IMG/VR virus record: IMGVR_UViG_3300042341_001208
Length of the DNA stretch: 64,000 nucleotides
DNA from: a virus
Lineage: Duplodnaviria > Heunggongvirae > Uroviricota > Caudoviricetes
Reading direction: 5' to 3' (one strand)
Part shown: piece after piece, positions 1,864 to 39,582 of the stretch
How the letters are laid out: each line of letters begins with the position of its first letter
Position numbering within the stretch: the first letter of the stretch is position 1
The notes under the pieces: model-generated
What the model was told of the DNA's origin: nothing
What the model saw: only the letters and a program-made list of their open reading frames with translations
Databases searched by the model: none
Position numbers and translations under genes: made by a program

Positions 1864-1873
1864 TACCGTATCT
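1864..1873 (+). promoter_or_regulatory. degenerate copy (TACCGTATCT) of GACCGTATAT promoter-like motif
   Basis: 15 nt upstream of ATG 1888. Confidence 0.25.
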
Positions 1874-1887
1874 TTCTATAACATAAT

Positions 1888-2547
1888 ATGGAAGATCAAG
1901 AATTGTGGGATCTCATGGGAGACCTTGAAGACGTTGGGCTTGGAGATAGTATCACCAAGGCTTATTCGATTACGGGATTTTATGAAGATGGGGAAGAGCA
2001 TCTCGACAACGACATTTTGACTGCTAATATCTTGAATGCTTTTATTGAAGTCAATGAATCAGATGGGGCTGATTTATTTCTTGACAAACTAGACGAGCCA
2101 AAATCTCCTCATATGGACCCTTTAGTTTCCTCCTGGTTTGGTGACAACTACCTTATAATCAAAGGAAACTTCACCAGGGTTAGATCAGTCGAAGAAAGGC
2201 TAAGAAAAGAGTTTGTAATCGAAAAAGAGGTTGAGCTTAAAGACTATAAAAAATTAGAGCTTAGTGGAAGTTCCGGATCTTACGGTGCGACTGGAATTTC
2301 AGGAACTCCTGGAATTTCAGGAACGACTGGATATGCTGGAACTACCACGGTTGTATATTCTTCCCCAGGATTGAGCGGGTCTTGGTCCACCTCAGGAGTA
2401 ACGGTTTCTGTCTCAACTCCAAAGATGATCCAAACTTCTGTCAAGATCGAAATGCCGATCAGGGAGCTAAAAGATCCACCAGAAGATGAGGTTGAGACCT
2501 ACGGACATCCTCTTTGGGAAAAGATTAAAGGTAAACTAGGATTCTAA
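1888..2547 (+). CDS. hypothetical protein with DLMGDLEDVGL motif and a Gly/Ser/Thr-rich low-complexity segment
   Basis: 219-aa ORF; N-terminal LWDLMGDLEDVGLG matches family motif; GSSGSYGATGISGTPGISGTTGYAGTT repeat. Confidence 0.5.
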   Translation: MEDQELWDLMGDLEDVGLGDSITKAYSITGFYEDGEEHLDNDILTANILNAFIEVNESDGADLFLDKLDEPKSPHMDPLVSSWFGDNYLIIKGNFTRVRSVEERLRKEFVIEKEVELKDYKKLELSGSSGSYGATGISGTPGISGTTGYAGTTTVVYSSPGLSGSWSTSGVTVSVSTPKMIQTSVKIEMPIRELKDPPEDEVETYGHPLWEKIKGKLGF

Positions 2548-2556
2548 ACCGTATAT
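2547..2556 (+). promoter_or_regulatory. GACCGTATAT-family promoter-like motif (AACCGTATAT)
   Basis: 4-10 nt upstream of HD gene start (ATG 2561/2567). Confidence 0.4.
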
Positions 2557-2560
2557 TCTA

Positions 2561-3088
2561 ATGAATATGACAACTCAAGAATTTATAAAATTTTGCAAAC
2601 ATCAACACGATGTAGAATGCAACCAAAAGTATGGAAAGATCCATCCTTATTCCTTTCACCTTGATCTAGTAGCTACCCAAGCTAAAAAGTTCGAAGAACT
2701 CCTAGGTGATTTTGATCTAGACCTAGATAAAACAATTATGGCATCATGCTACGGTCACGATCTGATCGAAGATGCCAGAGTTACCTACAACGATATCAAA
2801 GAAATGGTGGGAGAGAAGATCGCAGATATTATCTACTGTTGCACCGAAGAGAAAGGTAAAAACAGAGATCAAAGACACAGTGAGAAGTATTTTGCCGAAC
2901 TGAAAGAAAACGAACTTGCAATCTTCGTTAAACTTTGCGACATCACTGCCAATGTTAAATATTCTCTTTTAACAGACTCTGGAATGTTTAAAAAATACAG
3001 AAAAGAATTTCCTAAAGTTAAAGAACATCTTTACGTAGAGAAATTCAAACCCCTGTTTGACCACCTAGAATCAATCCTTTCAATCTAA
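2561..3088 (+). CDS. HD-domain phosphohydrolase (175 aa)
   Basis: His...HD...D pattern: SFHLDLV, CYGHDLIEDARV, CDITAN; small HD hydrolase fold; promoter motif immediately upstream. Confidence 0.6.
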   Translation: MNMTTQEFIKFCKHQHDVECNQKYGKIHPYSFHLDLVATQAKKFEELLGDFDLDLDKTIMASCYGHDLIEDARVTYNDIKEMVGEKIADIIYCCTEEKGKNRDQRHSEKYFAELKENELAIFVKLCDITANVKYSLLTDSGMFKKYRKEFPKVKEHLYVEKFKPLFDHLESILSI

Positions 3089-3092
3089 TCAT

Positions 3093-3464
3093 ATGAACCA
3101 AGAATTTTTATGGCTATTTATTCTGTTGATCCACTTCTTAGGAGACTTTGGACTTCAGACTCACGATCAAGCAACTAATAAATCCTCTAGTGACAAATGG
3201 CTATTTTACCACGTTGGAGTTTACTCTATCATCTGGTTCCTTGCAACCTGGATTTGGTTCGGAGCTGCAGATAAAGCATTTGCTTTTGCCATCACAACTT
3301 TCGTCTTTCACTTTCTAACAGACTTTGCAACCTCTAGGATAGGTAAGCCTTTCTGGGAGAACAAGGACTTTCACAATGGATTTGTAGTGGTTGGATTCGA
3401 TCAAATTCTACACTACATTCAGCTTTATTTAACTTTTTCCCTTATTTCATCTCAAATGATCTAA
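3093..3464 (+). CDS. small integral membrane protein
   Basis: 123 aa, 3-4 hydrophobic helices (LWLFILLIHFLGDFGL, VGVYSIIWFLATWIWFGA, FAFAITTFVFHFL). Confidence 0.45.
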   Translation: MNQEFLWLFILLIHFLGDFGLQTHDQATNKSSSDKWLFYHVGVYSIIWFLATWIWFGAADKAFAFAITTFVFHFLTDFATSRIGKPFWENKDFHNGFVVVGFDQILHYIQLYLTFSLISSQMI

Positions 3465-3468
3465 CTCT

Positions 3469-3478
3469 GACCGTATAT
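3469..3478 (+). promoter_or_regulatory. GACCGTATAT promoter-like motif
   Basis: ctGACCGTATATtcaataaaataacaat, 28 nt upstream of ATG 3507. Confidence 0.5.
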
Positions 3479-3506
3479 TCAATAAAATAACAATTAAAAA
3501 AATCAA

Positions 3507-4064
3507 ATGGAAACTAAAAAAATCATCAAGTATGCAGTAATGGGCATCATCGGACTTTTTGTATTTGGTATCTTTACCAGCATCATTTCAACCTCAAACC
3601 AAGAGGTGGATTTGAGAAACAGATTCAAACAAAAGATGGACGAGAGAACAGCATTCTACGACAAAATGTGGAAAACTATTTCCCAGAAATCTCAAGTTGC
3701 TCTTCGAAATGACAGCTCATTTGCAAACAACGTGAATGCAATCATGGCAGGAAGAAAGGACGCACAAGGGCTATTTATGAAATGGGTTCAGGAATCAAAT
3801 CCGAATGCGAACTATGAAACCGTATCCTCTTTGTATGCCGATCTAAGCCGAACTATTGAAGGCCAGAGAGATGGATTCTTCATGGAAGAAAAAATGATCC
3901 AGTCGATAGTGCTAGAACATGATAACATCATGGGTAAATTTCCTTCAGGGGTTATTCTTTCAACCTTCATGGGCAGAACTAAGCTAGTCTACAAACCTAT
4001 AACTTCAGATGTTACCGACGAGGTCATCAAGACAGGTAAAGACAACAACACGAAAGTGTTCTAA
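3507..4064 (+). CDS. hypothetical protein with N-terminal transmembrane anchor
   Basis: 185 aa; N-terminal hydrophobic segment AVMGIIGLFVFGIFTSIIS; GACCGTATAT motif 28 nt upstream. Confidence 0.5.
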   Translation: METKKIIKYAVMGIIGLFVFGIFTSIISTSNQEVDLRNRFKQKMDERTAFYDKMWKTISQKSQVALRNDSSFANNVNAIMAGRKDAQGLFMKWVQESNPNANYETVSSLYADLSRTIEGQRDGFFMEEKMIQSIVLEHDNIMGKFPSGVILSTFMGRTKLVYKPITSDVTDEVIKTGKDNNTKVF

Positions 4065-4089
4065 TTCAAGCAAAATTAAAAAAACAGAT

Positions 4090-4917
4090 ATGAAAAAACT
4101 ATTAGTCGTTTTAATGGCACTATTCACAGTCTTAACAGCAAGTGCCAAGTGTGATTTTTCTAAAGTTAAAGTTCAACAATGGAATCAAGGAGTCTATTAT
4201 AAATGGTACACTTCAGGATGGGAAGTAGATTCTTGTAAATCGATGACCTTTCTTCTATTTGATTACCAAACCCAAAAAACCGATACACTATTTAGCTTCA
4301 GGGGTATTGTTGAAATTGCCTTTAATGCACCAGGTTCTTATAAACTTTACATTAAGCTATCTGACAGATGCAATAAATGTGATACCGCGATTTATCGAAT
4401 TGTAGAAATTCAAAGATGGTACCCTAAAGCAATGTATACTGATAAGTTTATTACCTGTGATAGCTTAGTCGGCGAAATGGGAATTATATCTAACATTAAA
4501 GACACCTGCTACAGCTATTATTACACCATATATAGTGGAAATGAGTTAGACGAATTGACTAAGAATGATTGGGGAGCTATGAAAGATCGAGATTTGATCG
4601 ATTATTATTCTTTTTCACTTGATGACATTCGATATTCTTCTTCCAATTCTAGAAGGATTAATTATAAATTCCCCAACGAAGGAAGATTTTTGATGGTAAC
4701 CCAGTACTATAATAAATGTAATAACCAAGATACTTTCTTTCTAAGAAGATATAATATTGACTGCAGTACAACAGGGATTACATCCATCACTAAACAGGAA
4801 CCTAAACTAATAGGTATGTTTGATGTCTTGGGAAGACCGGTTACGTACGTTCGAGAAAATGAACTTGTAATCTACCTCTACAGTGACGGTACATACAAAA
4901 AAATAATTAGGAACTAA
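4090..4917 (+). CDS. secreted Cys-rich hypothetical protein (signal peptide)
   Basis: Start moved to in-frame ATG 4090 (MKKLLVVLMALFTVLTASA signal peptide), so it no longer overlaps 3507..4064; multiple Cys; followed by a strong terminator. Confidence 0.5.
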   Translation: MKKLLVVLMALFTVLTASAKCDFSKVKVQQWNQGVYYKWYTSGWEVDSCKSMTFLLFDYQTQKTDTLFSFRGIVEIAFNAPGSYKLYIKLSDRCNKCDTAIYRIVEIQRWYPKAMYTDKFITCDSLVGEMGIISNIKDTCYSYYYTIYSGNELDELTKNDWGAMKDRDLIDYYSFSLDDIRYSSSNSRRINYKFPNEGRFLMVTQYYNKCNNQDTFFLRRYNIDCSTTGITSITKQEPKLIGMFDVLGRPVTYVRENELVIYLYSDGTYKKIIRN

Positions 4918-4934
4918 ATTTAAATTTAAACTTT

Positions 4935-4964
4935 AAAGGTCGCTAAATTTTAGCGACCTTTTTT
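4935..4964 (+). terminator. rho-independent terminator hairpin
   Basis: Perfect inverted repeat GGTCGCTAAA/TTTAGCGACC (4938-4958) followed by TTTTTT; A-run upstream allows bidirectional function. Confidence 0.75.
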
Positions 4965-4980
4965 GTGTTTATTATTTACT

Positions 4981-4990
4981 GACCGTATAT
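4981..4990 (+). promoter_or_regulatory. GACCGTATAT promoter-like motif
   Basis: ctGACCGTATATttactaaataataaa, 23 nt upstream of ATG 5014, just after terminator 4935-4964. Confidence 0.5.
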
Positions 4991-5013
4991 TTACTAAATA
5001 ATAAATCAAAAAT

Positions 5014-6222
5014 ATGTTAATCTGGCTTTGTCTACTAATTCCTCTCATTGGAGCAATCGTTCTTCTTAAATGGTACAAACACACCCTAGTCTGGTGGGAA
5101 GTTCTAGTCCCTCTAGTTTCCTGCTTCTTCTTTATCCTAATCTTCAAATTCACAGTTGAAAAGATTCAAACCAGCGACACCGAGTATAAAGGTGCTCTCA
5201 TAGTTGAAGCTAGATACTACGAGTACTGGGAAACTTATGTTAGAAAAACCTGTTATAGAACTCATAAAGTAGGGAAGACAACTATTACAACTTCCTATGA
5301 TTGTTCTTATTGCGATCACAATCCGGAACACTGGACGATGATAAATTCTTTGGGACAAGAATTCTCTATTACCAAGGAACACTACGAAAAATTAAGAAAG
5401 CTCTGGAATTCTACCCCTCAATTTTTAGAATTGAACCGTAGTATAAACCACAGCTTCTTTGGATGCGGTAAGGATGGAGATGCATACGTAATCAAATGGA
5501 ATTTAAATCCTTTGACCTCCAGATCTACCACGGAATCAAACACCTACGACAATAGGGTTCAAGCTGCACATTCTGCTTTTGATTTCTTAGAAGTATCTGA
5601 GGAAGATGTAAAAAGATATAAACTATTCGAATATCCAGAAATTAAAGGTTACACCCAAGAGAATGTATTAGGTCTAGATTCTATGCCCTATATTCCAAAA
5701 AGTAAAATTGACACTTTCAAAATTTTAGCTCATTATTTGAATGGAAAGCTAGGTCCAGAAAAACACGCCAGAATTTATTTCCTCTTCTTTGAGGCTAAAG
5801 ATCAGCTAACAGCATCCATGCAAGAGGCTTACTGGGACGGAGGTAATGATAACGAATTGGTTATCTGCATAGGAATAGATCCGAAGACTCAGAACCTAAA
5901 CTGGGTAAAACCCTTCTCCTGGACTCCTAATCGACAAGTGATACCGGAAATCCGAGAGGAGATTATGGAAGTAGGTAAATTTGATCCGGTAGCAATTTCT
6001 AACCGAGTGGAGGGTGTGGTTAGATCCAAATACAAAAGAAAAGACTTTAGAGAATTCTCTTATCTGACAGTAGATCCTCCAGCTTGGTCTATCTGGGTTA
6101 CCGCAATTCTTACCGCAATTATTACCTTCTTATTATCCAGATGGGCGGCAATCAACGATATAGGTAACGATGGAGATATGTCAGGAGACTTTTTTAGCAG
6201 AAAGAGAACTTACAGATGGTAA
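5014..6222 (+). CDS. membrane protein, function unknown
   Basis: 402 aa; N-terminal (LIWLCLLIPLIGAIVLL, VPLVSCFFFILIF) and C-terminal (IWVTAILTAIITFLL) TM helices; promoter motif 23 nt upstream. Confidence 0.5.
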   Translation: MLIWLCLLIPLIGAIVLLKWYKHTLVWWEVLVPLVSCFFFILIFKFTVEKIQTSDTEYKGALIVEARYYEYWETYVRKTCYRTHKVGKTTITTSYDCSYCDHNPEHWTMINSLGQEFSITKEHYEKLRKLWNSTPQFLELNRSINHSFFGCGKDGDAYVIKWNLNPLTSRSTTESNTYDNRVQAAHSAFDFLEVSEEDVKRYKLFEYPEIKGYTQENVLGLDSMPYIPKSKIDTFKILAHYLNGKLGPEKHARIYFLFFEAKDQLTASMQEAYWDGGNDNELVICIGIDPKTQNLNWVKPFSWTPNRQVIPEIREEIMEVGKFDPVAISNRVEGVVRSKYKRKDFREFSYLTVDPPAWSIWVTAILTAIITFLLSRWAAINDIGNDGDMSGDFFSRKRTYRW

Positions 6223-6830: not shown

Positions 6831-7250
6831 GCAGATTTCGTACCCTATATATGATATATAAATTGAATAATATTTACATATCAAGCCAAGAAAAAAACAT
6901 CTACTCATTATATTTAAAAAACAACCTGCACAATTACTAAAAAATTTTATATTGGGATTCTTTCTACATCTATTTTGGATGATGGATATTTAGGATCTGG
7001 AGTAAAATTAACCAGATCTGTTAAGAAATATGGAAAATACAATCACATTAAAGAAATTCTAGAATACTTGAGTGATAGAGAGTCTTTATTATAATAAAAG
7101 AATTATTAGTAAACGAAGATCTAATAAATGATCCATTTTGTATGAATTTAATAGTAGGAGGAAATTTTTCGGGGCTCAATTATCGTAAAGAACACACCGA
7201 AAAAACTAAAAATAAAATTTCTTCTAAATAAAGGGAAAATAGAAAAAATT

Positions 7251-12393: not shown

Positions 12394-12403
12394 GACCGTA
12401 TAT
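12394..12403 (+). promoter_or_regulatory. GACCGTATAT promoter-like motif
   Basis: 7 nt upstream of ATG 12411. Confidence 0.45.
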
Positions 12404-12410
12404 TTATAAA

Positions 12411-12761
12411 ATGGCAATAAAATACAAAGAGTTTAAAAAGAAATTACAAAACGAACCCCTAACCGAAGAGGAATTAACCATTATTCAGGAGACAGAAGAT
12501 TATATTGACTCTGAAATTCTAAACCAATTTCCGAAGAGCAATTACGGAGAGGTTCTAATTGATTTGACTTATCCGTCTTTTACCTACTCTCATCAAAGAG
12601 GTTCTTTGATGGACTCAAATTCATATAGAAGATCCTTGATGAGATCCGAATTAGAAAAAAGATACAAATCAGCCGGATGGAAGATAGAGGTTAAATTCGA
12701 CGATGGACTGGATGGACCTAATATGTCCGGTCCAGATTATTGGATATTAAAAGGAAAGTAG
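12411..12761 (+). CDS. hypothetical protein
   Basis: 116-aa ORF; promoter motif 7 nt upstream. Confidence 0.45.
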   Translation: MAIKYKEFKKKLQNEPLTEEELTIIQETEDYIDSEILNQFPKSNYGEVLIDLTYPSFTYSHQRGSLMDSNSYRRSLMRSELEKRYKSAGWKIEVKFDDGLDGPNMSGPDYWILKGK

Positions 12762-12771
12762 GACCGTATAT
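12762..12771 (+). promoter_or_regulatory. GACCGTATAT promoter-like motif
   Basis: gGACCGTATATttataaaaataacaatATG, 16 nt upstream of prs start 12788. Confidence 0.5.
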
Positions 12772-12787
12772 TTATAAAAATAACAAT

Positions 12788-13690
12788 ATGTTACAATTAA
12801 ATTTAGCAGACTCAGATAAGTCACAGATCAAATTTAAACCATCTGCATTTCCAGACGGCCAGCAATCAATCACTTTAGCTCTGTCCACAATCTCAGATCT
12901 AGAAATATCTTGCACAATCAAGTCCAGATTAAATTCTTTCAGGGATTTAGAACTCATAGTCTGCGCAGCAGCTGCATTGAGAGAAGCTGGAATGGAAAGA
13001 ATTCACCTTTATATTCCATACTGTCTAGGCGGAAGATCTGACATCAAATTTGAAGAAGGTGGCTTAAACTACATCAAGAGTGTAATTGCACCTATCATCA
13101 ATTTACAAAAATTTACTTCTGTTACCGTCATGGATGCTCACTCGATAGCTCTAGAAAATTGCATTGATAATTTGAAAAAGCTAGACAATTCTTATCTTGC
13201 AAAATGGGCAATCAAGGATCTATCTTCAGAAGGAGGAGATTTCAAATTGGTCTCTCCTGATGCTGGAGCACTAAAGAAAATATTCTCAACAGCTAAATCT
13301 ATCGGATATAAAGGAGAAATAATAGTTGCTGAAAAAGTTAGAGATTTATCTACCGGAAAAATTATTCACACCAAGGTACCTATAAACGTTTATGATGCAG
13401 ATAAAGATTTTATCATTATAGATGATATCTGTGACGGTGGGAGAACATTCATAGAAATCGCCAAGGCTATAGAAGAAATGAGATCTTTAAGTTCAGTGGT
13501 TCATCCAGATAAGCACGGAAAAAATTACCTTATCGTAACTCACGGCATCTTCAGCGCAGGATTTGAAGAACTTAGTAAATATTTTGATAGAATTTATACC
13601 ACCAATTCTATCTCCGAAATAAACGAGTCTGAAAATTACAAAGGTGCTGAATTTGATAAACAATTTGTTAAACAACTAAACGTATTCTAA
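12788..13690 (+). CDS. prs: ribose-phosphate pyrophosphokinase (PRPP synthetase)
   Basis: Start set to ATG 12788 just after the promoter motif; motifs VTVMDAHS, KLVSPDAGALKK, IIIDDICDGGRTF (PRTase-type PRPP loop), LIVTHGIFS. Confidence 0.75.
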   Translation: MLQLNLADSDKSQIKFKPSAFPDGQQSITLALSTISDLEISCTIKSRLNSFRDLELIVCAAAALREAGMERIHLYIPYCLGGRSDIKFEEGGLNYIKSVIAPIINLQKFTSVTVMDAHSIALENCIDNLKKLDNSYLAKWAIKDLSSEGGDFKLVSPDAGALKKIFSTAKSIGYKGEIIVAEKVRDLSTGKIIHTKVPINVYDADKDFIIIDDICDGGRTFIEIAKAIEEMRSLSSVVHPDKHGKNYLIVTHGIFSAGFEELSKYFDRIYTTNSISEINESENYKGAEFDKQFVKQLNVF

Positions 13691-15071: not shown

Positions 15072-15953
15072 ATGGGAAATTCAAGTTATTCTACCTATAA
15101 TAGATCCATCAGATCCGAATCTTTTGGCTATCATAGCAAATCAAGAAACGAGATCTTTACCCAAAGTAAAGAGGGTAAAGCTCACGAGCAAATGAGACCT
15201 AAAGGAATCGTCTACAGAGAATGTAGAGATTCCGAGGCTCACCCGAATGCTACCCCGATTCAGCTTTATTTGGACGTTACCGGAAGCATGGGACATATTC
15301 CCCACGAAATGATTAAAGACGGTTTACCAACTTTAATGGGGAATCTAATTCAAAGAGGTGTAGAGGATGCTTCCCTTATGTTTGGAGCTATCGGTGACCA
15401 CGAATGTGACAAATCACCTCTCCAAGTTGGACAGTTTGAATCTGGTGACGAAGAATTGGACATGTGGCTTACCAGAACCTGGCTCGAAGGCGGAGGTGGT
15501 GGAAACGGCGGAGAAAGCTATCCATTAGCTTGGTATTTCGCAGGAAATCACGTTGCAACAGATGCTTGGGAGAAGAGAAACCAAAAAGGATTCGTATTCA
15601 CTATCGGTGATGAGCCTTTCCTTAATTCTCTACCAATGTCTGCAGTAAAGGAAATCATGGGGGATTCAGCATCAGGCCAATCTACTTGGGATGCTACAGT
15701 TCTTCTAGAACAAGCTCAAAAGACAAATCACGTTTTCCATATCTTCTTAGAACATGGTTACAGAAAAGTTGATTCGGCTTGGAAAGAATTAATGGGAGAT
15801 CACCTTATAGTTGCAAAAGACTATAAAGATATCCCGAAAATTATCTCAGAAACAATTTTAACTATTCAAGGGGAAAGAAAACCTTCTGAGAATGCGACCG
15901 TATATTCTAGTAATACTACAGATGAAAAAGACTCTGTAGATATTATCCTATAA
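15072..15953 (+). CDS. von Willebrand factor A (vWA) domain protein
   Basis: MIDAS-like LYLDVTGSMG (DxSxS) then Rossmann-like layout; Gly-rich loop EGGGGGNGGE. Confidence 0.55.
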   Translation: MGNSSYSTYNRSIRSESFGYHSKSRNEIFTQSKEGKAHEQMRPKGIVYRECRDSEAHPNATPIQLYLDVTGSMGHIPHEMIKDGLPTLMGNLIQRGVEDASLMFGAIGDHECDKSPLQVGQFESGDEELDMWLTRTWLEGGGGGNGGESYPLAWYFAGNHVATDAWEKRNQKGFVFTIGDEPFLNSLPMSAVKEIMGDSASGQSTWDATVLLEQAQKTNHVFHIFLEHGYRKVDSAWKELMGDHLIVAKDYKDIPKIISETILTIQGERKPSENATVYSSNTTDEKDSVDIIL

Positions 15954-17011
15954 TGAATACGAGCAAAATAGTAATTGGACTAAACTACGGAGACGAAGGA
16001 AAGGGGTTAACCACCTCTTTCCTCTGTTCCCAATCTAAAAATCCCATCGTTGTTAGATTCAACGGGGGTCACCAAGCAGGTCACACAGTATCCTTCAAAG
16101 GAAAAAGACATGTGTTTTCTAGCTTTGGATCAGGAACACTTCAAAAAGTTCCAACGTACTGGAGCAAATATTGCACATTCTCTCCGACAGCATTTCTAAA
16201 TGAATTAAAATTTCTACTGGATAAATCTTTAAAATTCCCAGGATTTTATCTTGATCCTTTATGTCCAATCACAACACCTTACGATTTATACAGCAACCGA
16301 AAAGATTCCCAGAATGTGAGTCATGGAACAGTCGGGGTAGGATTTGGATCAACTCTTAAAAGACACGAAAACTTTTATAAGCTTTATGCACAGGATATGT
16401 TCTATCCAGAAGTCTTCAAAGCAAAATTAGAAAACATTGCTAAGTATTACGGAATGGAGGATCTCGAAATCGATAACTTTTTAGAAGACGTAACAATTGT
16501 AACTACTATAGTTCAATTGACAAATGAAAAAGTTCTTTTAAATTATTCAGATGCTATATTTGAAGGGGCTCAAGGGGTTCTTTTAGATATGGATTTTGGA
16601 TTTTTTCCAAACGTTACCAGATCTAATACAACATCTAAAAATGCACTGGAAATTTCTCCTCTGCATTCAAACGAAATCTACTACATCACAAGATCTTATT
16701 TAACTAGACACGGAGCTGGATTTCTTCCAGGAGAAAAAGAACTTCCCCTAATTAATAATGAATTGGAGACAAACGTCTCTCATGAATACCAAGGAAATTT
16801 TAGAACAGCAGATTTAGATTTGGATCTTCTAAACTATTCTTTAAAATGTGACTCTCATTTTTCTGAGGGTCAAACCAAAAATCTAGTAATTACCTGCATG
16901 GATCAATATCCAATAGATGTAGAAAAATTGCTAGAAAAATTAGAAATTAAATTCAATAAAGTGTTCGTCTCTTACGGGGATTCACTTGATAAAATACAAC
17001 AATTAAAATGA
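15953..17011 (+). CDS. short adenylosuccinate synthetase homologue (PurA family; PurZ candidate)
   Basis: GDEGKG P-loop (IGLNYGDEGKGL), GGHQAGHTV, EGAQGVLLDMDFGFFPNVTRSNTT, TRHGAGFLPGE; 352 aa, shorter than bacterial PurA (about 430 aa), like archaeal PurA and phage PurZ. Confidence 0.7.
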   Translation: MNTSKIVIGLNYGDEGKGLTTSFLCSQSKNPIVVRFNGGHQAGHTVSFKGKRHVFSSFGSGTLQKVPTYWSKYCTFSPTAFLNELKFLLDKSLKFPGFYLDPLCPITTPYDLYSNRKDSQNVSHGTVGVGFGSTLKRHENFYKLYAQDMFYPEVFKAKLENIAKYYGMEDLEIDNFLEDVTIVTTIVQLTNEKVLLNYSDAIFEGAQGVLLDMDFGFFPNVTRSNTTSKNALEISPLHSNEIYYITRSYLTRHGAGFLPGEKELPLINNELETNVSHEYQGNFRTADLDLDLLNYSLKCDSHFSEGQTKNLVITCMDQYPIDVEKLLEKLEIKFNKVFVSYGDSLDKIQQLK

Positions 17012-17984: not shown

Positions 17985-18329
17985 ATGAGTAGAGTAATTT
18001 ATATAGCTTCTCCTTATTCTAATCCCGACCCTGATGTTACCGAGGAGAACTTTAAAAAAGTCTCGAGGCTTGCGGCTAAGCTTTGCTCAGAGGGTCAGGT
18101 TGCAATTTCCCCTATTACTTATGGTCACACGCTGGTTGGATTTAAACCAATGCCAATTGACTGGCCATTCTGGGAGAATTTTTGTCTTTCCATTCTCCAG
18201 GCTTGTGACGAAATCATAGTTTATAAAATGGAAGGTTGGGATAGATCGAGAGGTGTTGCAGAAGAGGTCGAATTTGCCAGAAGAAAAGGAATCCAGATCA
18301 CGTATATGGAATATGATCCTTCTATCTAA
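17985..18329 (+). CDS. nucleoside 2-deoxyribosyltransferase-like (DUF4406-type) protein
   Basis: VIYIASPYS...GQVAISP...DEIIVYKMEGWDRSRGVAEEVEFARRKG pattern of the Ndt/DNPH1-like flavodoxin-fold family. Confidence 0.45.
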   Translation: MSRVIYIASPYSNPDPDVTEENFKKVSRLAAKLCSEGQVAISPITYGHTLVGFKPMPIDWPFWENFCLSILQACDEIIVYKMEGWDRSRGVAEEVEFARRKGIQITYMEYDPSI

Positions 18330-18337
18330 CCGTATAT
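18328..18337 (+). promoter_or_regulatory. GACCGTATAT-family motif (AACCGTATAT)
   Basis: 17 nt upstream of ATG 18355. Confidence 0.45.
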
Positions 18338-18354
18338 TTAAATAAAATACCTTT

Positions 18355-18798
18355 ATGGAATTAAGAGAATATTTCGAAACAAATCCGGACTCTATCCCTT
18401 ATCTAGAAAGACTAGAAAGTGAATGGGAACAGTATGGAAAGATAATCATCGGATGTGATTATGACGACACAATTTCCCCATGGAAGATGGAGAATTTTAA
18501 TCCAGAAAGGGTTCTAGAAGTTCTAAAGGTTGCTAGAGAAACCGGAGCTTACATCGTAATCTTTACTTCTTGTGACAAAGCAAGATATCCAGAAATCGAA
18601 GACTATTGTAAAAGCATTGGCCTCACAATCGACTCGATCAATAAAAATCCAATCGACTTACCTTACGGTAAAAAAGGTAAAATCTATGCCAACATTTTCC
18701 TGGATGACAGAGGTGGAATGAATGAATCCCTAAACATTCTAGAAATGGCAACGTATAGAATTAGAGGAAAAAGAAGAGTTTTAGGAATCAACGTATAA
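18355..18798 (+). CDS. HAD-superfamily phosphatase-like protein
   Basis: Motif I IIIGCDYDDTI (DxDxT), motif III-like NIFLDDRGG; promoter motif upstream. Confidence 0.45.
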   Translation: MELREYFETNPDSIPYLERLESEWEQYGKIIIGCDYDDTISPWKMENFNPERVLEVLKVARETGAYIVIFTSCDKARYPEIEDYCKSIGLTIDSINKNPIDLPYGKKGKIYANIFLDDRGGMNESLNILEMATYRIRGKRRVLGINV

Positions 18799-18806
18799 TT
18801 AAGAAA

Positions 18807-18971
18807 ATGAAAATGAACCCAAAAGAAAAAGAATTGGAAAATATCCAATCCCAACAAAACCCTTCAAAAGAGGTTAATCCAACCGAGTCTGTAATAATAA
18901 AACAGATCGAGGATGATTTTGAATATCAAGAATATTATTCAGAAAATTCTCCTAATTTCGACGTAGATTAA
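18807..18971 (+). CDS. possible small acidic ORF (54 aa), not in supplied track
   Basis: ATG..TAA ORF MKMNPKEKELENIQSQQNPSKEV... fills the gap before the NAMPT promoter; coding status uncertain. Confidence 0.25.
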   Translation: MKMNPKEKELENIQSQQNPSKEVNPTESVIIKQIEDDFEYQEYYSENSPNFDVD

Positions 18972-18978
18972 TCAGGAG

Positions 18979-18988
18979 GACCGTATAT
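18979..18988 (+). promoter_or_regulatory. GACCGTATAT promoter-like motif
   Basis: gGACCGTATATtcaataaaataataaat, 20 nt upstream of nadV ATG 19009. Confidence 0.5.
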
Positions 18989-19008
18989 TCAATAAAATAA
19001 TAAATATT

Positions 19009-20538: not shown

Positions 20539-20550
20539 AAAAATCGGTAT

Positions 20551-20580
20551 CACCGGGGGGTTTCCCCGGTGACCGTATAT
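20551..20580 (+). promoter_or_regulatory. GC-rich stem-loop (CACCGGGG-ggttt-CCCCGGTG) fused to GACCGTATAT motif
   Basis: Perfect 8-bp hairpin 20551-20571 whose last base is the first base of the motif (20571-20580); 33 nt upstream of ATG 20614; no U tract, so not a canonical terminator. Confidence 0.45.
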
Positions 20581-20613
20581 CACCAAGAACAATTAATCAA
20601 TAAAAAATAAAAA

Positions 20614-23161: not shown

Positions 23162-23171
23162 GACCGTATAT
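23162..23171 (+). promoter_or_regulatory. GACCGTATAT promoter-like motif
   Basis: cGACCGTATATttaataaacaag, 18 nt upstream of ATG 23190. Confidence 0.5.
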
Positions 23172-23189
23172 TTAATAAACAAGAAATAA

Positions 23190-23639
23190 ATGGCAGTAAT
23201 CGGAATTAATTACGAGGGGGGAAATTACCACGACGAGGAAGACAATTTAGTTGAAGATGAGATTATTTACGAATTTGTTTATCTTCACACCTCGGAAAAA
23301 GAAATGATTTTTAACAGTGGAAATTTTCCCAAGGACTGGTATGATGCTAAGAAAGCTTTCATAACTTTACAGGAAGAAAATCCAAATGACCCTAATTATT
23401 TTCATTTATCTGGATCCTCTACATGCGATCATTTTATCATGGATGGTGCAAAATTTGACTCGGCTTACCTGCACGTGGAGGGAGAAACCCCCGTTCTAAA
23501 ATACTGTATTCCGTATGAGCATCCACCTTCAATCGAGACGATGGTCGAAAACAGATCAATTTATGAAGGAGGTTGGGAATTCTTTGTTCCAGAAGGAACT
23601 AAACCAACCTGGGAAGAATTAAAAGAATCATTTAAATAA
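23190..23639 (+). CDS. hypothetical protein
   Basis: 149-aa ORF, promoter motif 18 nt upstream. Confidence 0.45.
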   Translation: MAVIGINYEGGNYHDEEDNLVEDEIIYEFVYLHTSEKEMIFNSGNFPKDWYDAKKAFITLQEENPNDPNYFHLSGSSTCDHFIMDGAKFDSAYLHVEGETPVLKYCIPYEHPPSIETMVENRSIYEGGWEFFVPEGTKPTWEELKESFK

Positions 23640-24385: not shown

Positions 24386-25072
24386 ATGATTTACGTATCA
24401 ATAGACATCGAAACTACAGGACTAAATCCTGAAACTTGCCAAATCCTTTCTATAGGAGCAGTTATAGAGGACACTCAAAAACAATTGGCTTTCGAGGAAA
24501 TTCCGAAATTCCATTGCGCAATACTGAAAAATGAAAGGGATATAATCTCCGGTGAGATTTATGCTTTGAATATGAATAGGGATTTGATAGAAAGCATCAC
24601 CTACTATTCTACAGCTAAAGATCAAGATGAAAAGAATGATCTAGTTCATTTTACAGGAATGCAGTTTGTTAGAGAAGAAGATATTGCAGAACATTTTTTC
24701 CAATTCCTTTATCGGAACGGATTCAAGCCAAACGAGTCTGATCTACCCCTGAATAAAAAAATTAAAATAATAAATGGAATATCTTATCCTGTTTTGGATT
24801 CTTCTGTAAAGCCAATCACCATAAATGTAGCTGGGAAAAATTTCTCTGGATTTGATAGAAAATTTCTAGATTTACTTCCTAGATGGAAGCAACTAATCAG
24901 AACAAGAAGTAGAGTTATAGATCCAGGTGTATTGTTTGTAGACTGGGAAAATGATGACGCAGTTCCTTCTTTAGATTCCTGCAAAAAAAGAGCACTAATA
25001 GAAGGAGTGGTTACCCATAATGCTTTAGAGGATGCTTGGGATGTTATTCAAGTCTTAAGAACAAAATACTAA
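24386..25072 (+). CDS. DEDDh 3'-5' exonuclease (DnaQ/RNase T-like)
   Basis: Exo I SIDIETTGL, Exo II-like NFSGFDRKFL, Exo III THNALEDAWD; start placed at in-frame ATG 24386 (track gives 24353, overlapping upstream gene). Confidence 0.6.
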   Translation: MIYVSIDIETTGLNPETCQILSIGAVIEDTQKQLAFEEIPKFHCAILKNERDIISGEIYALNMNRDLIESITYYSTAKDQDEKNDLVHFTGMQFVREEDIAEHFFQFLYRNGFKPNESDLPLNKKIKIINGISYPVLDSSVKPITINVAGKNFSGFDRKFLDLLPRWKQLIRTRSRVIDPGVLFVDWENDDAVPSLDSCKKRALIEGVVTHNALEDAWDVIQVLRTKY

Positions 25073-25656
25073 TGAAAATAATCTATTTAGACATAGACGG
25101 AGTTCTTAATTGTGAAAAAGCATACCGAGATGGATTTTGCAAATATCAAGAATGGCCAGATACCAAAAGGGAGGATGGTAAAAATTACCACCAGACTTTT
25201 TATCCCCCGGCTAAGGACCTTCTAAATAAGCTTATTCTAGAAACAGGTGCTAAGGTTGTTGTCTCTTCTACCTGGAGACATTCGGGTTTAGAATTTATTA
25301 AAAACGTTTGGACTCAAGAGAAAATGGAAGGAGAAATCATAGGGATAACCCCTTCCTTTAGAGGAGACATTGAAGGGTATACAATTCCTAGAGGATGTGA
25401 GATTGAATATCACCTTGAAAAAGAATTAGGATTTCATCACATCAATTGGGACAAAGACACTCAGCAAGAATATATTGACAAATCTAACGTCGATAATTAC
25501 ATTATCATAGACGACGATTCAGATATGTTGTACACGCAAAGAAATCATTTTGTTCATGTCTTACCTTCTCCTAGGAACAAAGAGGGATTTAACGAAAAAT
25601 ATTTTGAAGAAGCACTAAAAAAATTATCAAAAACAGTTATAGATTTGAACTACTGA
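25072..25656 (+). CDS. HAD-superfamily hydrolase (nucleotidase/polynucleotide phosphatase-like)
   Basis: Start at in-frame ATG 25072 (MKIIYLDIDGVLN = DxDGV motif I) overlapping previous stop; track start 25036 adds 12 unlikely residues. Confidence 0.5.
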   Translation: MKIIYLDIDGVLNCEKAYRDGFCKYQEWPDTKREDGKNYHQTFYPPAKDLLNKLILETGAKVVVSSTWRHSGLEFIKNVWTQEKMEGEIIGITPSFRGDIEGYTIPRGCEIEYHLEKELGFHHINWDKDTQQEYIDKSNVDNYIIIDDDSDMLYTQRNHFVHVLPSPRNKEGFNEKYFEEALKKLSKTVIDLNY

Positions 25657-25664
25657 CCGTATAT
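25655..25664 (+). promoter_or_regulatory. GACCGTATAT promoter-like motif driving the tRNA-like gene
   Basis: ctGACCGTATATttaaatgtaac, overlaps TGA stop of upstream gene; 21 nt upstream of tRNA-like 5' end. Confidence 0.5.
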
Positions 25665-25685
25665 TTAAATGTAACAAAAACAAAT

Positions 25686-25769
25686 GCTCTGAGAAATTAA
25701 TTTGACATTGGTAGTCAAGCCAGCTTCTAAACCTGGTTTTTAGGGGTTCGATACCTCTTCAGAGCACCA
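25686..25769 (+). tRNA. tRNA-like gene with CUA anticodon (putative amber suppressor), non-canonical 8-9 nt insert between acceptor and D stems, encoded CCA
   Basis: Acceptor GCTCTGA/TCAGAGC + A + CCA; D arm TTGAC-ATTGGTA-GTCAA (GG present); anticodon arm CCAGC-TTCTAAA-CCTGG (one C-C mismatch), anticodon CTA; T arm AGGGG-TTCGATA-CCTCT; GACCGTATAT motif 21 nt upstream. Confidence 0.45.
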
Positions 25770-26192: not shown

Positions 26193-26744
26193 GTGGCCAT
26201 GAAATCTTGTCCACAAACAGAAACCCAATCTGTTCTAGATCACGGATTTTCTGTTAAGAATTACCTATTCGATCTTCTGGATCATTTAGAAAAAGGAACC
26301 CCTTTGAAGTTCGAATGGAAACTTCCAGAATGGATCTACGAGGAGAAAGAATTTATTCTTAAGACCTTACCCTCAAGACAAACTTTAAAGATATACACGG
26401 TGTTTCACGACTGTGGTAAGCCTCAGTGTTTAACCATCGACGAGGAGGGCAAAAGACACTTCCCTAATCACGCAGAGGCTTCGTACAATACTTTCATCAA
26501 TCTCTTTGATGATAATGCAGCAGCGGACTTAATACGCAGAGATATGGACATTCATTTACTTAAGTCCGAAGGTGTATCTGACTTCTGTAAAAATCCCAAT
26601 GCAATAGCATCTTTAATTACTGGACTTGCAGAGATTCACTCTAACGCTGAAATGTTTGGAGGGATCGAGAGCACTAGCTTTAAGATTAAGTGGAAGTGCA
26701 TCTCCAAGAGAGGAAAACAAATTATTCAAACCATAAAAAAATAA
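26193..26744 (+). CDS. possible HD-domain protein
   Basis: VLDHGF, VFHDCGK, FPNHAEAS, D-rich segment in HD-like order; weak. Confidence 0.35.
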   Translation: MAMKSCPQTETQSVLDHGFSVKNYLFDLLDHLEKGTPLKFEWKLPEWIYEEKEFILKTLPSRQTLKIYTVFHDCGKPQCLTIDEEGKRHFPNHAEASYNTFINLFDDNAAADLIRRDMDIHLLKSEGVSDFCKNPNAIASLITGLAEIHSNAEMFGGIESTSFKIKWKCISKRGKQIIQTIKK

Positions 26745-27405: not shown

Positions 27406-27735
27406 ATGAAAACAATCGAACAAAAAAGAGAAGATGCTATAAAGTATCTAAGACAAACTTCAAAACACTTATTTATGGATAAGAAAGAAACCCTAGTAAG
27501 AGTAGTTGAAATCGGACCAGAGGAATTTGAAAGAGTTACCTTGACTAAAGAGGGAAAAGAAGACAAGAGAAAAATTGGACTCGAACATTTCTTTAAGTAC
27601 TATCCAAATGATCCAAAGAACATTTGCAAAGTAAACCTATTTCCAAAGGATCACGGACTAAAATCAGTCAAGATGAAGCTGCTAAAAAAATACCAGCAGA
27701 TGGAAACAATTCCAGATGCTGACCGTATAATTTAA
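27406..27735 (+). CDS. hypothetical protein
   Basis: 109-aa basic ORF. Confidence 0.4.
   Translation: MKTIEQKREDAIKYLRQTSKHLFMDKKETLVRVVEIGPEEFERVTLTKEGKEDKRKIGLEHFFKYYPNDPKNICKVNLFPKDHGLKSVKMKLLKKYQQMETIPDADRII
27721..27730 (+). promoter_or_regulatory. GACCGTATAA variant promoter-like motif
   Basis: 21 nt upstream of DNA methyltransferase ATG 27752. Confidence 0.4.
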
Positions 27736-27751: not shown

Positions 27752-28693
27752 ATGGCAAAAAAATCAGATAGCGTTTACCAAAACGAAATTACCCCAACAG
27801 AAATTCTAACCACAAGATCAGCCATTCCGGCAGACTATCACACGGATGATTTCACAGAAAATTTTCTAGGAGAAATCTTTGATCTAAAGAGTGGAAAGTA
27901 CTACAGTCAGAATGCTAGATCTAGATACTACCCAAAGCAAGAGGACAAGCATCTTTGTCCAGGTCACTGGCAAGGCTACAGATGGGCAATTCAGAATTTG
28001 ACTGAACCTGGAGATTGGGTTTTTGATCCAACTTGCGGAACTGGAACCACTCTAGTTGAGGCTTATAATCACGGTAGAAATTCAGCAGGAGTTGAATTAG
28101 AATTTCCTAAAATCGCTAGGGCAAACATAGATCACCAAAGAGCTAGAACAGATGTATCTGCAAATCTAATGCAAGGTGATGCTAGAGAAACTGCTAAGAA
28201 TTTGGATTCATTGGGAATTAAAAAAGGTCAACTAAGTCTGGTTATTAACGGAACACCATATCCAAAAATCAGTGGTAAATCTTCGGATGCTCCGGAAAGA
28301 AAGAAACTTGTTAAGAAAGTAGAAGGTGAGGAAGAAGCTCCAGAAATGGTTGATAACACTTTTGATTATCAAAATCCTAACAACATCGGTTTAACAAAAG
28401 GAACTGAATATTGGGGATTGGTTAATTCGATGTATACCCAAGCCATTGAGTATTTAAAACCAGGTGGATATTTCGTTATCTTAATTAAGGACATGATTCA
28501 GAACAAGAAGCCATACCTTTTAAGCAGCATGATTGCCAACGAAGTTCTAGAGAACAATCCTGATGTTGAATACCACGGTTTGTATCTTCACAGACACATT
28601 CCAGAAACAATGTTTATGAGAACTTACCCTAAAATGTATCCGGGTGTTCCAGTTCCTTCTTACCAAGCAGGAATAGTTCTAAGAAAAAAATAA
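27752..28693 (+). CDS. DNA methyltransferase (amino-MTase, N6A/N4C type)
   Basis: SAM motif I VFDPTCGTGTTLVEA followed later by motif IV-like LVINGTPYP ((D/N/S)PPY class); promoter variant GACCGTATAA 22 nt upstream. Confidence 0.65.
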   Translation: MAKKSDSVYQNEITPTEILTTRSAIPADYHTDDFTENFLGEIFDLKSGKYYSQNARSRYYPKQEDKHLCPGHWQGYRWAIQNLTEPGDWVFDPTCGTGTTLVEAYNHGRNSAGVELEFPKIARANIDHQRARTDVSANLMQGDARETAKNLDSLGIKKGQLSLVINGTPYPKISGKSSDAPERKKLVKKVEGEEEAPEMVDNTFDYQNPNNIGLTKGTEYWGLVNSMYTQAIEYLKPGGYFVILIKDMIQNKKPYLLSSMIANEVLENNPDVEYHGLYLHRHIPETMFMRTYPKMYPGVPVPSYQAGIVLRKK

Positions 28694-35765: not shown

Positions 35766-35771
35766 TTAAAA

Positions 35772-37612: not shown

Positions 37613-37973
37613 CCAATTTTTTAATTTTAAAAATTAAAGATTCCATGGCTCCCGGATATTTTCCGTTGTCGCTAGATCTCTCTGGATATTCGGTTAAATA
37701 AGGATCTTCTAATTTCACTTTCTTACCTTTATGATTAGAAACGGTTTTATCCTCGTAGTAAAGAAGATCTAAATCCATTAGGGATCCAAGCATTTTATCA
37801 ACTTCAAAATCTTCTTCTTCTAAACCGGTTAGATTTATAAACATTTCTATGGCATATTTCGGATCTATCCAACCCATCCCAGAAGTAACTATATCAATGA
37901 TATTATCTGTAGCGGATTTAGGATCCATAGATTCGTTCAAAAACTCACCATATTCTTTAATATTGATTCCCAT
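37599..37973 (-). CDS. hypothetical protein
   Basis: Start set to internal Met (MGINIKEYGEF) at 37973 so it abuts rather than overlaps the upstream gene. Confidence 0.4.
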   Translation of the reverse strand: MGINIKEYGEFLNESMDPKSATDNIIDIVTSGMGWIDPKYAIEMFINLTGLEEEDFEVDKMLGSLMDLDLLYYEDKTVSNHKGKKVKLEDPYLTEYPERSSDNGKYPGAMESLIFKIKKLDEFH

Positions 37974-37975
37974 TT

Positions 37976-38722
37976 TTATAAAAGTTTTTTTGCTTCTTCG
38001 AAATCTTCTGCAGTTAAATTCCATCCAGCTATTTTTTCTTTGATGAATTTCTTAGCTTCTGGATATGTTGCGTCAGTGTTATCTTTTAAATATGCTAACA
38101 ATTTTTCTCTAATCGCCGGATGAATTCCTTCAGATTCTAAAATTTCTTCCGGAAACTCAAATTCTAAGCTTTCGGTTGTCAATTTAATTTCTGATAAAAT
38201 CTTTTTCAATTCCTCCTGGACTTTTATTTTATCTCTTCTAGATGCTCCTCCTTGACCGATGAAAACATTAAATTCTTCGATCATATCATCGGTTAATTCC
38301 TCATCCAGTTCAACTAATGGTTTTTCTGAATTTTCCCAATCGTCTGTTCCAAATCCTATTTCCATCACCGGAACGTCGTTAGCAGCAGCTTCTATTCCCA
38401 TTGAATCTGGATCTTGGTATTCTTGAGCATCTTCGTCCCAAATCTTGTAATTTTCCTCGAACTCCGGAGAGGTTGAATCAAAATAGAAAATGTAGTTTTT
38501 ACCTGTTTTTTGATCTTTTAATGTTGCAAACTCAAGAAAATCTGTAGATGTTAATTTTAAGTTGTGCTTGGAGGGATTGATTCCTCTAAGATCCTCAACT
38601 TCTCTATAATCATCTTCTCTGTACCCGGGAGGGAGGTTTCCGGATGGAGAGGTAGTTACACCAAATAAGTCTGCCTCGTTATTTTTTAGATGAAATTCAT
38701 CGAAAGATAAAATTTTTGCCAT
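37976..38722 (-). CDS. acidic hypothetical protein
   Basis: 248-aa ORF, Asp/Glu-rich (DDWENSEKPLVELDEELTDDMIEEF). Confidence 0.45.
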   Translation of the reverse strand: MAKILSFDEFHLKNNEADLFGVTTSPSGNLPPGYREDDYREVEDLRGINPSKHNLKLTSTDFLEFATLKDQKTGKNYIFYFDSTSPEFEENYKIWDEDAQEYQDPDSMGIEAAANDVPVMEIGFGTDDWENSEKPLVELDEELTDDMIEEFNVFIGQGGASRRDKIKVQEELKKILSEIKLTTESLEFEFPEEILESEGIHPAIREKLLAYLKDNTDATYPEAKKFIKEKIAGWNLTAEDFEEAKKLL

Positions 38723-38894
38723 TGATTTAAATTAATTTGTTTATATATCCCAGTCACATCAAAATCTTTTGTTTGAAATATTTCAATTATTTTTTAATTT
38801 TAAGAAACTTTTCTATAAAAACCATCTAAAAGAATTACTTATATTCCCTGGAGAAGTATCTATTATTATCTAGGAGCCGCCGTTAAGGTCTCAA

Positions 38895-38924
38895 CAAAAA
38901 ACCCAAACTCGAAAGTCTGGGTTT
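38895..38924 (-). terminator. probable rho-independent terminator for minus-strand gene 38943..39548
   Basis: AACCCAAAC-(tcgaaa)-GTCTGGGTT hairpin (8 of 9 bp) with T-run on minus strand (A-run 38895-38899 on plus). Confidence 0.45.
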
Positions 38925-38942
38925 ACATAAGGTCTATTCTTC

Positions 38943-39548
38943 TTATTTTAAACTTAGAAGGTATTTAGTTTGATCTATCAGACTCAAAATTTCCTGAATT
39001 ATATTAAAGATTTCCGGATCTTTATTTTCATCGAATGCAGAGATACATTCTTCTCTGTAACAAACATCTAAATGAGCTATGAATCTAGGAAGTCCGTCTG
39101 GGGATTCTGGAGAATCGTAGTTATCTAATTTTAATGTTCTTTCCGAATCATTAAAAACGGGTCTACCATATTTTCCCATGATTGATTCTATCAAAGTATC
39201 TGAGATTTCAATAAACTCTTCAAAGAAATTATCTAAAGCTTTGTGCTCGGAATATGAATTGGTCTGCCAATGCAAAAGTTTTGCTTGAGTCATATTTTGA
39301 AGAACCCTACTTGCAACCTGGCTTGTTTTAGAGCTAGGGGTTTGGGTCTTATCTGGAGCTGCACTAGGAGTTTTGGGAATACTAATAGGTTTTAGAGGGA
39401 TAATTTCCGCATCAGTCTCTACCTCCGGACCTTTGGGTTGTTCTGGGTTATATTTTCTTTTACCTGCAGGTTCTATAATTTCACCAAAGGCACTTAGATT
39501 TAATACGTTGTCCGCCATATATTTTTTTTCTTTTTTGTTATATATCAA
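38943..39548 (-). CDS. hypothetical protein
   Basis: 201-aa minus ORF; alternative start at Met11 (39518); Pro/Thr/Ser-rich middle. Confidence 0.45.
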   Translation of the reverse strand: MIYNKKEKKYMADNVLNLSAFGEIIEPAGKRKYNPEQPKGPEVETDAEIIPLKPISIPKTPSAAPDKTQTPSSKTSQVASRVLQNMTQAKLLHWQTNSYSEHKALDNFFEEFIEISDTLIESIMGKYGRPVFNDSERTLKLDNYDSPESPDGLPRFIAHLDVCYREECISAFDENKDPEIFNIIQEILSLIDQTKYLLSLK

Positions 39549-39572
39549 GTACGACCGAAATTTTTTTAAAAA

Positions 39573-39582
39573 TGCCGTATAT
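39573..39582 (+). promoter_or_regulatory. TGCCGTATAT variant promoter-like motif
   Basis: 9 nt upstream of ATG 39592, at the minus-to-plus strand switch. Confidence 0.4.

Follow-up and report, generated by a model that had tools for sequence, protein, structure and literature searches.

What does a nearly identical 12-nt motif do when it recurs just upstream of gene after gene in a large uncultured phage with a Bacteroidota host, and what reads it? This question is raised by a 64,000-nt stretch of the Caudoviricetes record IMGVR_UViG_3300042341_001208 (hereafter, the window), in which the motif, GACCG followed by a TATATT(T/C) box, stands on the plus strand before start codons and a tRNA-like gene. 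The original prediction took it to mark a phage-specific promoter class. From ~71 kb of sequence in all, part of a genome whose full length is probably several hundred kb, we find the promoter interpretation well supported by sequence comparison, and we consider it reasonably probable that the motif is the core of a stereotyped phage promoter class, the form taken in this lineage by a promoter that is family-wide and based on the −7 box of the host.

A stereotyped repeat upstream of plus-strand genes

The 10-mer GACCGTATAT occurs in nine exact copies, all on the plus strand (starting at 3469, 4981, 12394, 12762, 15896, 18979, 20571, 23162 and 25655), compared to 0.07 expected, and none of 100 dinucleotide-preserving shuffles reached nine. 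The eight near-identical sites listed by the original prediction are all real, and the copy at 15896 had been overlooked. Copies with one mismatch at 18328 (AACCGTATATTT) and 27721 (GACCGTATAATT) and weaker variants at 1864, 2547 and 39573, all listed before, are likewise present; with a newly added degenerate copy at 18789, the total comes to ~15 window sites. The core 8-mer CGTATATT is found 11 times (1.5 expected), never off the plus strand. All 13 plus-strand copies of CGTATA[AT]T lie 11–54 nt 5′ of a start codon or the tRNA-like gene, while positions within 60 nt upstream of a plus-strand start make up only 6.5% of that strand.

Conservation is limited to ~12 nt, and the A-rich stretch downstream of them varies in sequence; the aligned window sites have no conserved column upstream of the 12-mer, and no longer repeat unit or terminal inverted repeats surround it. 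An A/T-rich spacer had been proposed to follow each copy. The A-rich leader is indeed general, but its literal form, TTTAAATAAAATAA, is found solely at 18328. The gap between the 12-mer and the ATG measures 2–45 nt, rather than the 5–35 nt given before, with the distance from motif to ATG ranging from 14 to 57 nt. Nor is the motif restricted to the region of 1.8–39.6 kb: the held-out contig L143, which is identical to the window across their overlap and reaches ~6.7 kb beyond its right end, adds two sites (AACCGTATATTA at L143 5965 and GACCGTATATTT at L143 6441), each directly before a gene.

Along the window, all sites being on the plus strand, the weak variant TACCGTATCTTT (1864–1875) lies 24 nt 5′ of the ATG at 1888, and its box, TATCTTT, is the same as in the relatives L017 and Tenacibaculum phage pT24. 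The variant AACCGTATATTC (2547–2558) overlaps the stop codon of gene 1888–2547 and is followed by ATGs 14 nt (2561) and 20 nt (2567) downstream. Core sites GACCGTATATTC (3469–3480) and GACCGTATATTT (4981–4992) precede genes 3507–4064 (phrog_1383) and 5014–6222. The site at 12394–12405 has the ATG at 12411 in position +17, predicting a leaderless or near-leaderless transcript, and the one at 12762–12773 precedes a PRPP synthase gene (12788–13690). The site at 15896–15907 is within the 3′ end of open reading frame (ORF) 15072–15953, 57 nt from the ATG of a PurA-like gene (15953–17011).

Further along, two copies flank a plus-strand SIS/phosphoheptose-isomerase-like gene (18355–18798) that is absent from the close relative L119: AACCGTATATTT (18328–18339), before the gene, forms the left edge of the missing cassette, and the degenerate CAACGTATAATT (18789–18800), before the ATG at 18807, its right edge. 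The next core sites precede a NAMPT gene (18979–18990; gene 19009–20538), an SPFH gene (GACCGTATATCA, 20571–20582; gene 20614–22536) and gene 23190–23639, which is followed by a CCA-adding enzyme operon (23162–23173). The site at 25655–25666 overlaps the stop codon of gene 25072–25656 and is 31 nt from the tRNA-like gene (25686–25769, plus strand). Finally, the variant GACCGTATAATT (27721–27732), within the 3′ end of ORF 27406–27735, precedes a methyltransferase gene (27752–28693), and the variant TGCCGTATATTA (39573–39584) precedes an RNaseH-like gene (39592–40059).

Relatives share the core in a bipartite geometry

The exact form of the motif is lineage-specific, since none of the NAMPT-linked relatives carries GACCGTATAT and a scan of IMG/VR for GACCGTATATTYAATAAA returned only two matches, single and unrelated. 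Several relatives (L005, L006, L007, L016 and L047, plus L064 and L132 from a metagenome scan) have their own stereotyped repeat upstream of start codons, which reads TTGG-N17-(T)CGTA[CT]ATT(T/C)A. The spacing of 17 nt between TTGG and CGTA is invariant across 24 of 24 sites in L005, L007, L016, L047, L064 and L132; in L007, 12 copies of the CGTA-ATT core occur within 21 kb, all on the plus strand and each before an ATG. Rewritten as TTTG-N20-TAnnTTT, the repeat has the −33/−7 geometry of the Bacteroidota primary sigma factor.

Two of the genes common to the window and these relatives bear the relatives' promoter, NAMPT and PRPP synthase, and both have the GACCG motif in the window. The PRPP synthase orthologue is preceded by TTGG-N17-CGTAYATT in L005, L007 and L047, and NAMPT in other relatives by TTTG-N19-TATCTTTA, TATCTTTG or similar, such that a promoter occupies the orthologous NAMPT position in many of them. 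Otherwise, the genes behind the relatives' motif are mostly ORFs of 50–150 aa without a window homologue. The window and its closest motif-bearing relatives have in common CG at −14/−13 plus the box; relative to them, the window has gained GAC and lost TTGG. Two sites of L027 (9937 and 19708) combine a CGTATATTTAC core with AAGGAATAA 18 nt upstream in place of TTGG, and the upstream partner of the box thus varies by lineage.

In pT24, a cultured, T4-like jumbo phage, the canonical form TATATTTG is enriched (16 copies versus 7.3 expected), and 12 of its 13 plus-strand copies lie at most 75 nt before annotated genes. One stands 24 nt before an annotated tRNA-Sup, paralleling the window site at 25655. 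Because of these bipartite repeats, the orthologous NAMPT and PRPP synthase positions and TATATTTG in pT24, we regard the motif as this lineage's version of a family-wide promoter; the same evidence bears out the suggestion that its core is a Bacteroidota-type −7 box acting in transcription. A literature search on the promoter motifs known from Bacteroidota phages turned up no direct counterpart.

The position and strand of the motif could also be explained by a signal in the RNA, such as a processing site or translation enhancer within polycistronic transcripts: the copies stand 2–45 nt ahead of start codons and always on the coding strand, and other leader signals are conceivable since Bacteroidota lack Shine–Dalgarno sequences (PMC6847099). 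We hold this to be very unlikely indeed. The site at 25655 precedes a tRNA-like, non-coding gene, which argues for a transcription rather than a translation signal; the relatives' second element sits exactly 17 nt upstream, often within the preceding gene, a sigma-type geometry at the level of DNA; and the motif has a variable distance to the ATG and no conserved structure.

Comparison with host promoters

Our reference for host promoters is Flavobacterium. In F. johnsoniae, promoters mapped from transcription start sites have a box with T at −12, A at −11, T at −8, −7 and −6 and G at −5, with G excluded at −10/−9, a weak −33 element, AT-rich tracts at −18 and −28, and leaders averaging 33 nt (PMC6847099). 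The median leader in F. psychrophilum is 24 nt, and 5.5% of mRNAs are leaderless (PMC9723704). An A-rich leader free of a Shine–Dalgarno sequence is typical of the phylum (PMC6847099). The window sites resemble the primary-sigma promoter TTTG (−33)/TAnnTTTG (−7) in the box, in their A-rich leaders and in compatible distances to start codons, and the relatives additionally share TTTG at 20 nt. Read from T−12, the 11 core sites have TATATT(T/C), with T−12, A−11, no G at −10/−9 and T−8 to T−6; departures are TATAATT at 27721, TATATCA at 20571 and a C at −6 in 3469, 15896 and 18979.

Several observations weigh against reading the motif as a host-type promoter that acts early and doubles as a recombination cassette. 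G is absent at −5 from all 11 core sites, most of which have A there; this G is also missing from the CGTAYATT relatives, but is present in TATATTTG of pT24. The window sites have no fixed −33 element, with TTTG at 20 nt only for 4981 and TTG at 19 nt only for 12394. GACCG is invariant at −17 to −13, GC-rich where published F. johnsoniae promoters are AT-rich around −18 (PMC6847099), in agreement with the original prediction that GACCG is not a host feature. The predicted leaders are short (median, ~14 nt), and at site 2547 transcription is predicted to begin 3 nt inside the first ATG. Gene 3507–4064 matches a PHROG family named 'virion structural protein', which fits poorly with an early class. 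Lastly, gene gain or loss with a crossover inside the repeat is represented by a single indel, described below.

Two other sigma types were considered and set aside. Scans with an Escherichia coli-type sigma-70 consensus, which is not relevant for this host, gave no enrichment (57 versus 53 expected and 44 versus 58 expected). Among extracytoplasmic function (ECF) sigma factors, sigma-W of Bacillus subtilis has the promoter box CGTA. The ECF promoters of F. psychrophilum (motif SM6; PMC9723704) have a CGT −10 box and the core contains CGTA, but the AAC-type −35 element is lacking 16–17 nt upstream here, and the relatives have TTTGG; we therefore rejected an ECF-sigma reading of the CGT box.

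Which factor reads the motif

The rigid TTGG-N17 geometry of the relatives favors a sigma-type reader over a phage RNA polymerase of the T7, N4 or phiKZ type. The motif might be a phage-specific, middle-type promoter whose GACCG and −7-like box are read by the host polymerase only after its modification, via a phage sigma-like factor or a sigma-appropriation pair resembling AsiA and MotA of T4, through which the −33 contact would become dispensable. All sites lack G−5 and a fixed −33 element and yet have five invariant GC-rich bases at −17 to −13 (PMC6847099); upstream elements vary by lineage on the same core (TTGG in L005, L007, L016 and L047, AAGGAATAA at two L027 sites and GAC in the window); and a separate class of elements, [AG]ATATATA, indicates that the phage uses more than one signal. 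However, the closest relatives with the CGTAYATT core retain a canonical TTTG-type −33 element at host spacing, and pT24 has the canonical host box at equivalent places. Furthermore, PHROGs or Pfam scans of window proteins recognized no sigma-like, AsiA-like or MotA-like protein and no sigma or RNA polymerase gene or domain, the available sequence being ~71 kb of a much larger genome. We consider this explanation rather unlikely.

The same holds with somewhat greater caution for a stronger form of the proposal, which we regard as doubtful: that GACCG and the loss of −33 and G−5 define a class unusable by the unmodified host polymerase and read by a phage sigma-like or sigma-appropriating factor. 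Such a class would amount to a T4-like, multi-class program built on the unusual Bacteroidota sigma, and a phage-encoded factor of this kind would, to our knowledge, be the first described for Bacteroidota phages. Of the original prediction, the promoter stands, while a modified polymerase or phage sigma factor is not established, the comparative evidence pointing first to recognition of the sigma-A type.

Alternatively, GACCGTATAT could be an operator at which a phage or host DNA-binding regulator co-switches ordinary promoters. Its conservation is far stricter than a sigma box usually needs, and the element of L005 and L007 is nearly palindromic (CGTAYATTTACG). The window element, however, has no dyad symmetry, the bases shared across lineages are the −7 box plus CG only, and near the sites there is no other conserved promoter-like element for an operator to control, which leaves this explanation very unlikely.

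We take the most likely reader to be the RNA polymerase of the host, carrying its primary sigma factor and possibly aided by a phage protein. TATATT(T/C) would serve as a Bacteroidota-type −7 box (T−12 A−11 H H T−8 T−7 T−6) with T−12 at the sixth base of the motif, and transcription would start ~17 nt after the motif's first G. The resulting leaders would be 0–40 nt long, A-rich and without a Shine–Dalgarno sequence (leaderless at 12411, 40 nt at 15953), and the A-rich spacer described earlier would be a leader of the type used by Bacteroidota ribosomes. The −33 element of the relatives would have been lost in this lineage, with the invariant, GC-rich GACCG at −17 to −13 arising instead; GACCG may make up for the absent −33 element and G−5 by providing a contact of the 'extended −10' kind. 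Extended −10 (TGn) promoters of sigma-70 likewise combine extra bases just upstream of the box with loss of the upstream element; the bases are TRTGn there and GACCG here, and a contact by region 3 of the Bacteroidota sigma-A is suggested by analogy only. The predicted promoters would drive auxiliary genes, genes of nucleotide or NAD metabolism and the tRNA-like gene and, given these targets, they probably act early or in mid-infection.

A second class of promoter-like elements

The original prediction also argued, from genes that lack the motif, for at least two regulatory classes, and a second class can indeed be found. The octamer [AG]ATATATA occurs in 14 copies over both strands (plus strand: 6853, 25794, 29747, 35345, 40063, 42530, 49255, 60729, 60801 and 60814; minus strand: 45532, 39546, 38749 and 35354), and each of the 14 is intergenic and has the orientation of the gene that follows it. 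For most, the ATG of that gene comes 4–36 nt downstream; the copies at 6853, 25794 and 60729 are 80–400 nt upstream. GATATATA alone has 10 copies compared to 3.7 expected. The element precedes minus-strand genes, several genes at ~35–42 kb and a 702-aa gene at 60847, and it is also found far upstream of the giant gene with a secretion signal. The held-out 6.7 kb contains a further copy before a minus-strand gene (L143 8443, minus strand), and AATATATA occurs just before several ATGs in the 635-kb relative LR745206 (L056).

T4 offers a comparison, having several promoter classes, as here, and the relatives of the window phage include T4-like jumbo phages such as pT24. The late promoters of T4 (gp55, TATAAATA), like [AG]ATATATA, consist of a single AT-rich box without an upstream element (PMC2988021). 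The middle promoters (MotA/AsiA; PMC2988021) differ from the window sites, which have no MotA-box-like element at −30. No homologues of gp55, gp33, MotA or AsiA were identified in the available sequence (~71 kb).

We also considered TCTATAA as a third box. Only 6 of its 14 plus-strand copies are intergenic and it is also common inside genes, making it too unspecific to call. TCTATAA(T/C) at 1842, 1875, 22609, 28767 and 40380 (plus strand) lies 10–30 nt before starts that have neither main box, and may reflect chance or a weak third box.

Stem-loops and a cassette indel

The GC hairpin reported as fused to the motif at 20551–20580 is real and maps to 20545–20575, with 9 + 3 pairs (−21.2 kcal/mol; z, −3.3) and no strand assigned to it. 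Its 3′ arm holds the whole GACCG of site 20571. It has been proposed as an attenuator, but is better read as a terminator-type stem-loop that overlaps a promoter, as in T4-type phages (see below): its 5′ flank carries a run of A, which the minus strand reads as T, and no T run follows on the plus strand, so that it looks like a terminator for the opposite strand. A second case is an intrinsic-terminator-like hairpin with a T run at 4935–4961, canonical for the plus strand, which ends in the TTTG located 20 nt 5′ of the TA in site 4981. Stem-loops are joined to a promoter at these 2 of the ~15 window sites, and most sites are without one. In L005, L007, L016 and L132, hairpins of the GGGG/CCCC type lie exactly between TTGG and CGTA at several sites.

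L119, the closest relative found (NAMPT identity, 91%), differs from the window by one gene. Positions 1–183 of L119 align to 18166–18347 of the window and positions 164–1116 to 18790–19745, and the 20-nt overlap between the two alignments coincides with the motif. The SIS-domain gene (18355–18798) is present in the window and absent from L119, which has a single, hybrid motif copy; the segment concerned (18348–18789) is 442 nt long and separates two phages that are ~92% identical. The NAMPT promoter and leader are identical in both, with differences at nearby positions. In L119 1117–1804 the match to the window is not continued, ending at 1116 inside NAMPT (residue 263 of 509); a gene insertion or a chimeric contig is possible.

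The indel, with its junction in the motif, is what a repeat serving only recombination or a mobile element, with no role in expression, would predict. That explanation we find scarcely credible: the conserved part measures just 12 nt and is neither embedded in a larger unit nor bounded by terminal inverted repeats, all copies are co-oriented with and just before the next gene, and the core is the promoter box of relatives, including the cultured phage pT24. Together, the site before the tRNA-like gene, the rigid bipartite geometry in relatives and the lack of a longer repeat unit or conserved structure make this, the operator and the RNA signal all unlikely. Recombination may still be a second role of the promoters that we favor, with the ~20 nt recurring between genes doubling as homology for the insertion and deletion of gene cassettes.

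A precedent exists in the PeSLs (promoter-early stem-loops) of T4-type phages (Arbiol et al. 2010, PMC2839356; Comeau et al. 2014, PMC4122927). These are stereotyped early promoters whose stem-loops mostly cover the −10 box or sit in the interval that separates it from the −35 box; they border ORFans and bring about modular shuffling. Like PeSLs, the motif is a near-identical, lineage-specific putative promoter of host-sigma type between non-essential genes, repeated intergenically in a variable genome region. Further shared features are G-run/C-run stem-loops between or over the boxes (L007 and L016; window 20545–20575), a terminator–promoter unit (window 4935–4992) and the gain or loss of a cassette with its junction in the repeat (L119 versus the window). 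In contrast, PeSLs have sigma-70 −35/−10 boxes rather than the Bacteroidota −33/−7, and a unit of ~100 bp rather than ~12 nt plus an A-rich leader; the window sites also differ in having no Shine–Dalgarno sequence and a stem-loop at only 2 of ~15 sites. The likeness suggests by analogy that these are stereotyped phage promoters in a Bacteroidota form, serving at the same time as recombination cassettes and bearing a GC-rich extension that is independent of −33.

The tRNA-like gene

The gene at 25686–25769 had been described as a suppressor-like tRNA. Its 7-bp acceptor stem is perfectly paired and followed by ACCA, its T arm is canonical, and its anticodon loop, TT-CTA-AA, resembles that of an amber suppressor. 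The linker between the acceptor and D stems has an atypical 9 nt, and the gene is called neither by default ARAGORN nor at the Rfam gathering score (16.9 bits). The tRNA-Sup of pT24 lies ~2.7 kb upstream of a homologue of window gene 26199–26744. Stop codons in the window are TAA (61), TGA (10) and TAG (5), with no in-frame TAG recoding evident there.

Genome context

The window has a coding density of 93% and encodes, besides NAMPT, PRPP synthase, the PurA-like enzyme and the CCA-adding enzyme, a Lon-like protease and a 1,697-aa PKD/CHU_C protein with a type IX secretion signal. Protein relatives are jumbo phages (the 635-kb uncultured LR745206, RsoM2USA, XacN1, GAP32 and the T4-like pT24), and NAMPT-linked IMG/VR relatives are on contigs of up to 373 kb. 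The same phage is found at 99.9–100% identity in several metagenomes; contigs L057–L062, with the same NAMPT, are 99.9–100% identical to the window and so uninformative on selective constraint. Samples containing the phage include JGI 3300044637, 3300042863 and 3300043469 as well as SRR27335588 and SRR27426700. No phage record was matched in a megablast search with 25 kb, and L119 (1.8 kb) was the only nucleotide-level relative in the metagenome scan.

Some local features stand apart from the motif. ORFs 3507–4064 and 4009–4917 overlap by 56 nt, with a frameshift or wrong start possible. A non-coding gap of 420 nt (6831–7250) before the PKD/CHU_C gene is the largest in the first 40 kb, bar the tRNA-like region. 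The higher G+C of that gene (0.42–0.44 versus ~0.36) suggests that it was acquired from a host. The PurA-like gene is short (352 aa) and its PHROG family bears a PurZ-like name. A diaminopurine (Z) genome that might affect promoter recognition was considered; we rejected it, as a PDB search on the protein returned bacterial PurA and no chain named PurZ. The HD phosphohydrolase at 2561–3088 resembles small alarmone hydrolases in a PDB search, which returned no chain named DatZ.

Implications for Bacteroidota phages

Promoters of Bacteroidota phages are almost unstudied, and the primary sigma factor of the phylum reads unusual signals. The phages compared here form a natural promoter series, from canonical TATATTTG in pT24 through TTGG-N17-CGTAYATT in the relatives to GACCGTATATTT without −33 in the window, which shows interchangeable bases and suggests how an upstream extension might replace the −33 element and G−5. 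Should reading the motif require a phage factor, a new mechanism of redirecting sigma would be indicated. The motif serves as an immediate guide to the transcription units of an uncultured jumbo phage and supplies compact candidate promoters that could be built into genetic tools for Flavobacteriia. In addition, it is a first hint, at the level of sequence, that cassette shuffling in jumbo phages of Bacteroidota is driven by promoter repeats, as it is by the PeSLs of T4-type coliphages.

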